Source: a virus (Duplodnaviria > Heunggongvirae > Uroviricota > Caudoviricetes). From it: a DNA stretch of 64,000 nucleotides. Shown one piece after another: positions 49,405 to 49,613 of the stretch (positions are counted from its first letter, which is position 1; every line of letters begins with the position of its first letter). A program made the translations under genes and the position numbers. The notes under the pieces were generated by a model, which made no database searches, had not been told where the DNA came from, and was given only the letters and a program-made list of their open reading frames with translations. The DNA lies in the IMG/VR virus record IMGVR_UViG_3300020577_006835, positions 4,588 to 68,587 of that record; one strand, given 5' to 3'.

Positions 49405-49613
49405 GGTGGCCGATGATGCCGTGCCTGTAGTGGCCACGTATTGAACGCCACCCAGCTCAACTAGACAACGAAGCCCAAAGAGCACATTACAAATACGTCA
49501 AGATAAATGTGGCCAGATCCTGGTTGTCGGTATGCGACTTAGTGTCAGGTGCCACATCGAAGTCAGCGGCCAGGGCATCAACGCCTTCTGAGGCCAACTA
49601 TGGTGCGCCGCTG
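49405..49613 (+). ncRNA. Three dual-spacer stem-loop units (TIGR-like) plus one irregular interval
   Basis: Spacer pairs ATGATGCCG/CGTATTGAA, GATCCTGGT/AGTGTCAGG and GGGCATCAA/ACTATGGTG. Confidence 0.85.

Follow-up and report, generated by a model that had tools for sequence, protein, structure and literature searches.

Putative stem-loop tigRNA genes between a conserved partner gene and tasA in the TIGR-TasA locus of a 208-kb GC-rich phage

Organization of the locus and architecture of its guide units

The window considered here, that is, the whole analysed stretch of 64,000 nucleotides, belongs to a phage whose genome is represented by one contig of 208,019 bp with a GC content of 62.7%. 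Downstream of a gene coding for a DNA polymerase A with a fused uracil-DNA glycosylase domain, the window carries a partner ("accessory") gene and tasA, accompanied by hairpin-forming guide units (Table 1). Three of these units, on the coding strand, occupy the 287-nt spacer that runs from the partner-gene stop (49355) to the start of tasA (49643), and the 3' foot of the third one is separated from the tasA ATG by 29 nt. This stretch very probably represents three stem-loop tigRNA genes of a TIGR-TasA system, located between tasA and a partner gene particular to this clade, in a GC-rich phage of 208 kb. A TTG at 48525 was rejected as the start of the partner gene, as it falls inside a hairpin, and the ATG behind GGAGAAGGAAGA is the true start.

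Table 1. Features of the TIGR-TasA locus (positions in the window unless stated otherwise)
Feature	Position	Strand	Remarks
Promoter P1 (predicted)	48374..48404	+	CTTGACA, 14 nt, GTGTTAAACA; 29.8 bits; before the first guide unit of the locus
Promoter P2 (predicted)	48473..48503	+	CTTGACA, 14 nt, GTGCTAAGAG; 32.6 bits
Copies of the promoter-like consensus	22152, 48374, 48473, 52335; in genome C1 79807, 90144, 112152, 149848, 83060(-)		
First guide block	48415..48615	+	Units 48415-48464, 48508-48558, 48565-48613; R1 E 1e-4, 2e-6, 2e-3
Partner gene	48630..49355	+	241 aa; ATG at 48630 behind GGAGAAGGAAGA
Candidate decayed unit	49356..49400	+	Inner part intact (C, 11 nt, GCCTAAGGGGC, C, 11 nt, G); outer stem broken
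Guide unit 1, core	49405-49452	+	R1 35.9 bits
Guide unit 1 with extended stem	49397..49460	+	Extension TTGAGC pairs with GCTCAA
Unit 1, inner parts	49413-49421, 49423-49434, 49437-49445		Spacer A (ATGATGCCG), loop, spacer B (CGTATTGAA)
AT-rich linker	49461..49506	+	46 nt; 39% GC; unstructured
Guide unit 2	49507..49557	+	R1 36.3 bits; fold z -2.0
Unit 2, inner parts	49516-49524, 49526-49538, 49541-49549		Spacer A (GATCCTGGT), 13-nt loop GTCG..CGAC, spacer B (AGTGTCAGG)
Guide unit 3	49564..49613	+	R1 39.3 bits; fold z -1.6
Unit 3, inner parts	49573-49581, 49583-49594, 49597-49605		Spacer A (GGGCATCAA), loop, spacer B (ACTATGGTG)
tasA Shine-Dalgarno AAGGAG	49629..49634	+	Read from the sequence
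tasA	49643..50494	+	283-aa nuclease-free Tas protein, Nop domain
Downstream array	50504..51356	+	14 units (14 R1 matches); CTT-rich linkers

The original prediction had described three units in the spacer with the outer stems GGTGGC/GCCACC, ATGTGGC/GCCACAT and CAGCGGC/GCCGCTG, all of which were confirmed by our analysis at 49405-49452, 49507-49557 and 49564-49613. The stem of unit 1 is longer than its core: the pairing of 49397-49402 (TTGAGC) with 49455-49460 (GCTCAA) results in a stem of 6+6 bp with a 2x2 internal loop, and the predicted fold of the extended 68-nt hairpin has an energy of -29.9 kcal/mol (z -3.6).

As revealed by a hairpin scan of the locus, the geometry of units 1-3 is common to the 17 other units: the outer stem ends with G-N-C and is followed by C, 11 nt, a mini-hairpin of 12-13 nt, C/T, 11 nt and again G-N-C. 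The 5' half of a unit consists of a stem ending with GGC, a C, a semi-conserved base, nine variable nucleotides and a base that is never G. The mini-hairpin in the middle (12-13 nt) is of the type GCC..GGC or GTCG..CGAC, and the 3' half behind it is composed of C/T, one base, nine variable nucleotides, one base and a stem starting with GCC.

An alignment of 41 units from the window phage and two relatives, from which the covariance model R1 was built, resolved two variable segments (columns 10-18 and 35-43, at most 0.26 bits) corresponding to two guide segments of 9 nt each. Both are preceded by an invariant or nearly invariant C (column 8 in 41 of 41 units, column 33 in 36 of 41) and an A/U-biased base, and both are followed by a base that is never G (columns 19 and 44) and then by G. 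The guide segments are thus flanked by C-C-A/U ("box C"-like) and H-G ("box D"-like) positions, which matches the arrangement of CCA ("box C") and UG ("box D") described for tigRNAs by Faure et al. (PMC12045711). The outer stems, though variable, are palindromic, and covariation was strong throughout the 41 units: 96.1% of the stem cells (outer stem and mini-hairpin) were paired, as compared with 74% after shuffling and 28-47% after sliding of the 3' partners, and changes on both sides occurred in nine of the ten pairs (86 cells versus 19.4 in shuffles). The three hairpins are, as far as geometry and covariation can tell, genuine two-spacer guide units of the published TIGR-TasA kind.

A search of the whole 64-kb window with R1 returned exactly 20 units between 48415 and 51354 (E 3e-7 to 2e-3), all of them on the + strand, which is also that of tasA, at no more than 1.3 kb from this gene; no unit was found elsewhere in the window, and the next match had an E-value of 0.65. 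The reverse complements of units 1-3 (- strand) scored merely 6-7 bits. In support of the unit geometry and SIGNIFICANCE, a strict pattern recovered 14 of the 20 units; on the + strand of the window it produced 19 matches, 14 of which lie in the locus, against a mean of 2.7 in shuffled windows. Hence, the predicted total of 20 units with 40 spacers was right. Instead of the four blocks interleaved with two genes, we count three (3 + 3 + 14 units); a fourth arises only when the internal promoter of the first block is taken to divide it.

Stem-loop TIGR arrays have been described previously (PMC12045711, section 9) and surveyed recently (bioRxiv 10.64898/2026.09.09.750476); according to the latter, the units can precede or follow tas or even lie inside it, with varying linker lengths. 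Known examples of stem-loop TIGR-TasA include PlTasA from a Peromyscus leucopus gut contig (Faure et al. 2025, PMC12045711) as well as BlTasA and MbTasA (Xu et al. 2026, bioRxiv 10.64898/2026.09.09.750476). The present locus shares with these systems a nuclease-free Nop-domain protein, variable palindromic stems in place of edge repeats, and sub-arrays on both sides of tas with uneven linker lengths. Unlike in these systems, its units are split by a second conserved gene whose product has no informative fold match, units 1-3 are devoid of the CUU motif, and the locus resides in a 208-kb GC-rich phage.

With archaeal box C/D sRNAs and Nop5, and with the bridge RNAs of IS110/IS621, the system has in common two guide segments per RNA, box C/D-like anchor motifs and a Nop-fold domain, IS621 being among the fold matches of TasA. 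In contrast to them, neither a fibrillarin/L7Ae partner nor a DEDD/RuvC recombinase domain nor a K-turn is present here, and the published TIGR target is DNA, on both strands. A tandem guide array, which would be processed from a long transcript, and a guide content that turns over between strains are reminiscent of CRISPR arrays, from which the locus differs by two 9-nt guides per unit, unit stems that are individually different, and the lack of a conserved long repeat and of Cas1/Cas2.

The nuclease-free Tas protein and its conserved partner

No Pfam match was obtained for the 283-aa TasA. Its 76 homologues likewise carry no Pfam domain, and one of them is labelled by its source as "IS110 family transposase". 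A profile of 43 TasA homologues matched chain A of the PDB entry 9MTY (TasR) over residues 148-296, the Nop domain (E 1.3e-20); this entry is the TasR-tigRNA-DNA complex of Faure et al. (PMC12045711). The AF2 model of TasA (pLDDT 91.8) is all-helical, with no strand of three or more residues. Foldseek with this model placed TasR and TasH structures at ranks 1-10 (probability 1.00), the best matches being TasR and five TasH complexes, followed by the IS621 bridge-RNA recombinase. The model shows no RuvC or HNH fold, and since 283 residues leave no room for one, the protein is to be regarded as TasA and not as TasR or TasH. The Nop-domain match and the nuclease-free protein, together with the hairpin units, identify this as a stem-loop TIGR-TasA system.

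The partner protein is predicted to be all-helical with a basic, Pro/Lys-rich N-terminus (AF2 mean pLDDT 79). A profile built from three partner proteins collected a family of 23 members; searches of 22 of them against Pfam at E<=0.01 identified no family except for one stray UBA match. A PDB sequence search with the partner protein yielded nothing below E 0.3, Foldseek returned no informative match (best E 1.5), and a wide structural search gave at best a 45-residue helical hairpin (Z 5.2).

The gene order of polymerase, partner gene, units, tasA and units again is found in the relatives L001 and L004. TasA identity amounts to 60% and partner identity to 37% in L001/L002, with seven units in the spacer; the corresponding values for L004/L005 are 55%, 29% and three units. 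Phage replication genes (gp32-like, 5'-3' exonuclease and RecA-like) accompany the syntenic relatives. The L001 polymerase (18-4457) comprises 1479 aa as compared with 1133 aa in the window and contains a LAGLIDADG homing-endonuclease domain, which suggests an intein or an inserted endonuclease missing from the window copy.

Distant partner homologues were located directly upstream of a Tas homologue in all three cases looked up (hhalign E 1e-51, 8e-73 and 1e-6 for the Tas homologues, the last gene being cut by the contig end), and hairpin units with the CCA motif lie between the genes in both distant loci with a readable spacer. Overall, a partner homologue precedes a Tas homologue in five of five other loci examined, and guide-like units occur between the two genes in four of four other loci whose spacer was read. 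Partner and Tas thus go together in every locus examined, which makes the partner a conserved companion of this TasA clade, and predicted guides between the two genes are the rule in the clade.

The closest published parallel in layout is the tasParB-tasA operon, in which dual-repeat arrays are located "sometimes between" the genes. Here too, a conserved gene is situated directly upstream of tasA and guide units separate the two; searches with the present partner against Pfam, PDB sequences and known folds detected no ParB-like domain, and the arrays are of the stem-loop and not of the dual-repeat type.

A variable island with lineage-specific spacers

Comparison with L001 revealed that the TIGR-TasA locus (48740-51040) forms a variable island between flanks of 97-98% identity. 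Identity to L001 was about 97% up to 48739, no similarity was detectable in 48740-49666, and values of 75% (49667-50863), 88% (51043-51826) and 97-98% (from 51824) were observed further downstream. Most of the partner gene and the guide block behind it are thereby devoid of detectable nucleotide similarity, tasA is 75% identical, and units 1-3 are found in the most divergent part of the island.

In seven of the 17 other units, 15-18 of the 18 spacer positions agree with L001. In units 1-3 the spacers share 7, 5 and 3 of 18 positions with those of their best scaffold partners, against a background of 4.9 +/- 2.4, and the scaffolds match those of relatives at 23, 21 and 23 of 28-29 positions (background 17.7 +/- 3.3). 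None of the six spacers of units 1-3 recurred in the two relatives, and by this comparison the six predicted guides are, within the available data, specific to this phage lineage. At the head of the 14-unit array, the first two units (50504-50624) and their counterparts in L001 (6929-7050) have nearly the same outer stems and unrelated spacers, which looks like guide replacement inside a kept scaffold. The spacers of the unit at 48565-48613 (TCAGTTGGT; reverse complement AGAGCAATT) presumably resemble the D-arm of bacterial tRNA genes.

Targets were searched in the form of spacer A followed by the reverse complement of spacer B, an orientation that we derived ourselves from the published 8-nt 3' overhang and the "C - 5" cleavage rule. 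Within the phage's own genome, the best matches for any spacer pair, with trimmed ends and gaps allowed, were no better than those of three control arrangements. In IMG/VR, each of units 1-3 (9+9 nt with a gap of 0-2 nt) found one or two matches, which is at chance level, and the contigs hit were unrelated (38-57% GC) with inconsistent junctions. For unit 3, a search of 185,579 prokaryote genomes resulted in 26 matches spread across unrelated phyla, which is what chance predicts when 18 bases are specified. Because exact 18-base matches arise by chance in collections of such size, only clustered matches would be meaningful, and none were clustered. A match of unit 1 at 22 of 24 positions in the giant-virus metagenomic contig L010 (2470-2493, 38% GC) was judged to be a chance one in view of the search space and the unlikely biology. 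Phage GenBank records contained no match to the locus.

Transcription, processing and possible role of the inter-gene guides

The phage possesses a promoter-like consensus (CTTGACA, 14 nt, GTGCTAA) in nine copies in its 208-kb genome, eight of them on the + strand. In the weight matrix derived from these nine copies they score 29.8-38.5 bits, the genome mean being -27, and P1 and P2 alone fit in 48300-51500 (next best 6.2 bits). The partner gene, units 1-3 and tasA have no consensus promoter closer upstream than P2 (48473). From there to the far end of the 14-unit array, neither a consensus promoter nor a terminator was detected, no terminator-like site was found in 48200-51600, and a generic sigma-70 promoter scan of the locus came back empty. 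The lack of such signals inside the locus makes co-transcription plausible. The proposal that the guides sit in the UTRs of an operon mRNA is therefore supported at the sequence level, by the position in the spacer, the coding strand, the missing terminator, promoters at 48374 and 48473 only, and the conserved layout. Four metatranscriptome runs hold the locus as assembled contigs spanning the flanking genes, which attests to its presence and not to transcript ends or strand; these contigs may reflect DNA.

A variant from wastewater RNA libraries (X6, X7) differs from the window at 45 positions in 2.75 kb of the polymerase region (46000-48421) and at one position in 2.2 kb of the TIGR locus (48720-50936), a mosaic opposite to the one seen against L001. 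Samples from wastewater and rivers contain 50-80% of the sequence words of the locus. In L001 itself, a gap of 71 nt (5842-5912) before the last unit preceding tasA contains GTGCTAG, close to the -10-side promoter motif, and no CTTGACA; this gap may be an internal promoter in that relative.

Between units 1 and 2, the original prediction had noticed an AT-richer interval of about 55 nt that fits no unit. Its AT-richness was corroborated (41% GC versus 62.7% in the genome), and its extent had to be revised: because 49455-49460 pairs with 49397-49402, the first 8 nt belong to the extended stem of unit 1, and the non-unit interval shrinks to the 46 nt of 49461-49506. This segment is unstructured in the predicted fold (-0.4 kcal/mol, z +0.5). 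It is best described as a long single-stranded A-rich linker, and we infer that it would provide a natural entry site for a host endonuclease.

An internal promoter in this interval, from which units 2 and 3 and tasA would be transcribed apart from the partner gene, is an unlikely alternative. It is the only AT-rich stretch of the spacer (41% GC), its CTAGACA matches the -35 hexamer at five of six positions, CAAGAT/GATAAA occurs near unit 2, and other long linkers contain promoter-like motifs, namely P2 in the first block and GTGCTAG in L001. Nevertheless, the weight matrix gives at best -3.3 bits for the whole 287-nt spacer, the interval included, compared with 29.8-38.5 bits at real sites, and nothing was picked up by the generic sigma-70 scan. 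The distance from the -35-like to the -10-like piece is moreover 29 nt instead of 14, and a start 7 nt past CAAGAT would be placed inside the stem of unit 2.

The earlier suggestion that 49452-49506 is a decayed guide unit did not survive and appears quite unlikely. The interval has about the length of one unit, and the spacer of L004 is filled by three units without a gap, of which b and c have stems in common with units 2 and 3, so that L004 unit a occupies the matching slot. R1, however, did not match 49461-49506 even with filters off and at E<=10, the interval is unstructured, 8 of its 54 nt are part of the unit 1 stem, and alignment to homologous loci produced p-values of about 0.07 for the L004 spacer and about 0.23 for the L001 spacer, in a range of 0.07-0.6 without significant similarity to the intergenic DNA of the relatives. 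The element ACAACGAAG, shared by the interval and the spacers of relatives, was rejected as a sign of homology, being a recurrent linker motif.

A better candidate for a decayed unit than 49461-49506 is the segment 49356-49400, located about 10 nt past the partner-gene stop in what is the first-unit slot of L001 and L004. It includes a weak partial R1 match (49359-49395, model positions 7-44, 6.2 bits, E 0.33 in 321 nt) and adopts no unit-like fold alone (z -0.16).

According to the preprint survey, processed ends in stem-loop tigRNA "frequently" coincide with a CUU motif (bioRxiv 10.64898/2026.09.09.750476); by this wording, CUU at the stem base is a frequent and not an obligatory feature. 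A CTT within 16 nt 3' of the foot was present in none of units 1-3 as compared with 11 of 14 units of the downstream array (Fisher p ~0.03). The CTT density of the linkers amounts to 0.7 per 100 nt in the block of units 1-3 and to 5.6 in the 14-unit array, the genome background being 0.97. If CUU marks the cleavage site, its absence 3' of units 1-3 implies that these units may be processed differently or poorly, a lead that bears directly on the link between guide excision and effector expression proposed for this locus.

The tasA Shine-Dalgarno is unpaired in the predicted fold of 49562-49650. The loop of unit 3 contains CCTTCT (49584-49589), complementary to AGAAGG (49627-49632) at the ribosome-binding site of tasA. 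An anti-Shine-Dalgarno role for this loop was rejected, as the predicted fold keeps the hairpin and frees the site, and the complementarity is absent in L001 and L004; it is probably due to chance.

That the hairpins act mainly in cis, as TasA-binding operators or as processing or stability elements setting the partner:TasA ratio rather than as DNA guides, seems very unlikely: the spacer position conserved across the clade, the missing CUU motif that marks the downstream array, and a preprint speculation on coupling of maturation and translation (bioRxiv 10.64898/2026.09.09.750476) are in its favor, but geometry and scores are the same as in the other 17 units, the Shine-Dalgarno is not sequestered in the predicted fold, and scaffolds somewhat retained (21-23 of 28-29 positions, background 17.7) around spacers at background (3-7 of 18, background 4.9) form the pattern that diversifying pressure on guides is expected to leave, unlike that of a fixed operator.

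As tigRNA genes, the units would be transcribed from P1/P2 in one long RNA with the partner gene and tasA. TasA dimers would bind the hairpins, and host RNases would trim the single-stranded linkers, 49461-49506 among them. The released RNP would then bind a DNA site of the form used in the target searches (spacer A, then the reverse complement of spacer B) and block transcription there, as is the case for other TasA proteins, whose RNPs repress transcription (bioRxiv 10.64898/2026.09.09.750476). As the six spacers appear private to the lineage, their targets probably differ from those of the relatives. Cleavage at the units would split the partner-gene cistron from that of tasA, whose remaining leader would measure 29 nt, so that guide maturation could affect TasA output.

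Tentatively, and at low probability, the inter-gene guides might represent a conserved regulatory design, in which TasA, possibly together with the partner, binds the hairpins of its own leader, and maturation sets both TasA output and the partner:TasA ratio; the partner might then supply the maturation or loading factor that is missing in stem-loop TIGR systems, which have no Y/H self-processing loop.

TIGR-TasA systems have been described only in 2025-2026, and their natural targets, the maturation route of stem-loop units and the way in which guide sets change are questions for the field. Taken alone, the block adds little, as it is a further example of a published kind. It nevertheless offers a clean natural case for examining whether guide excision and TasA expression are coupled, with three guides inside a predicted, conserved two-gene operon that are devoid of CUU, adjoin an unstructured linker and lie where an otherwise 97%-identical phage genome diverges most. 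It would likewise be suited to testing the role of the conserved partner protein.
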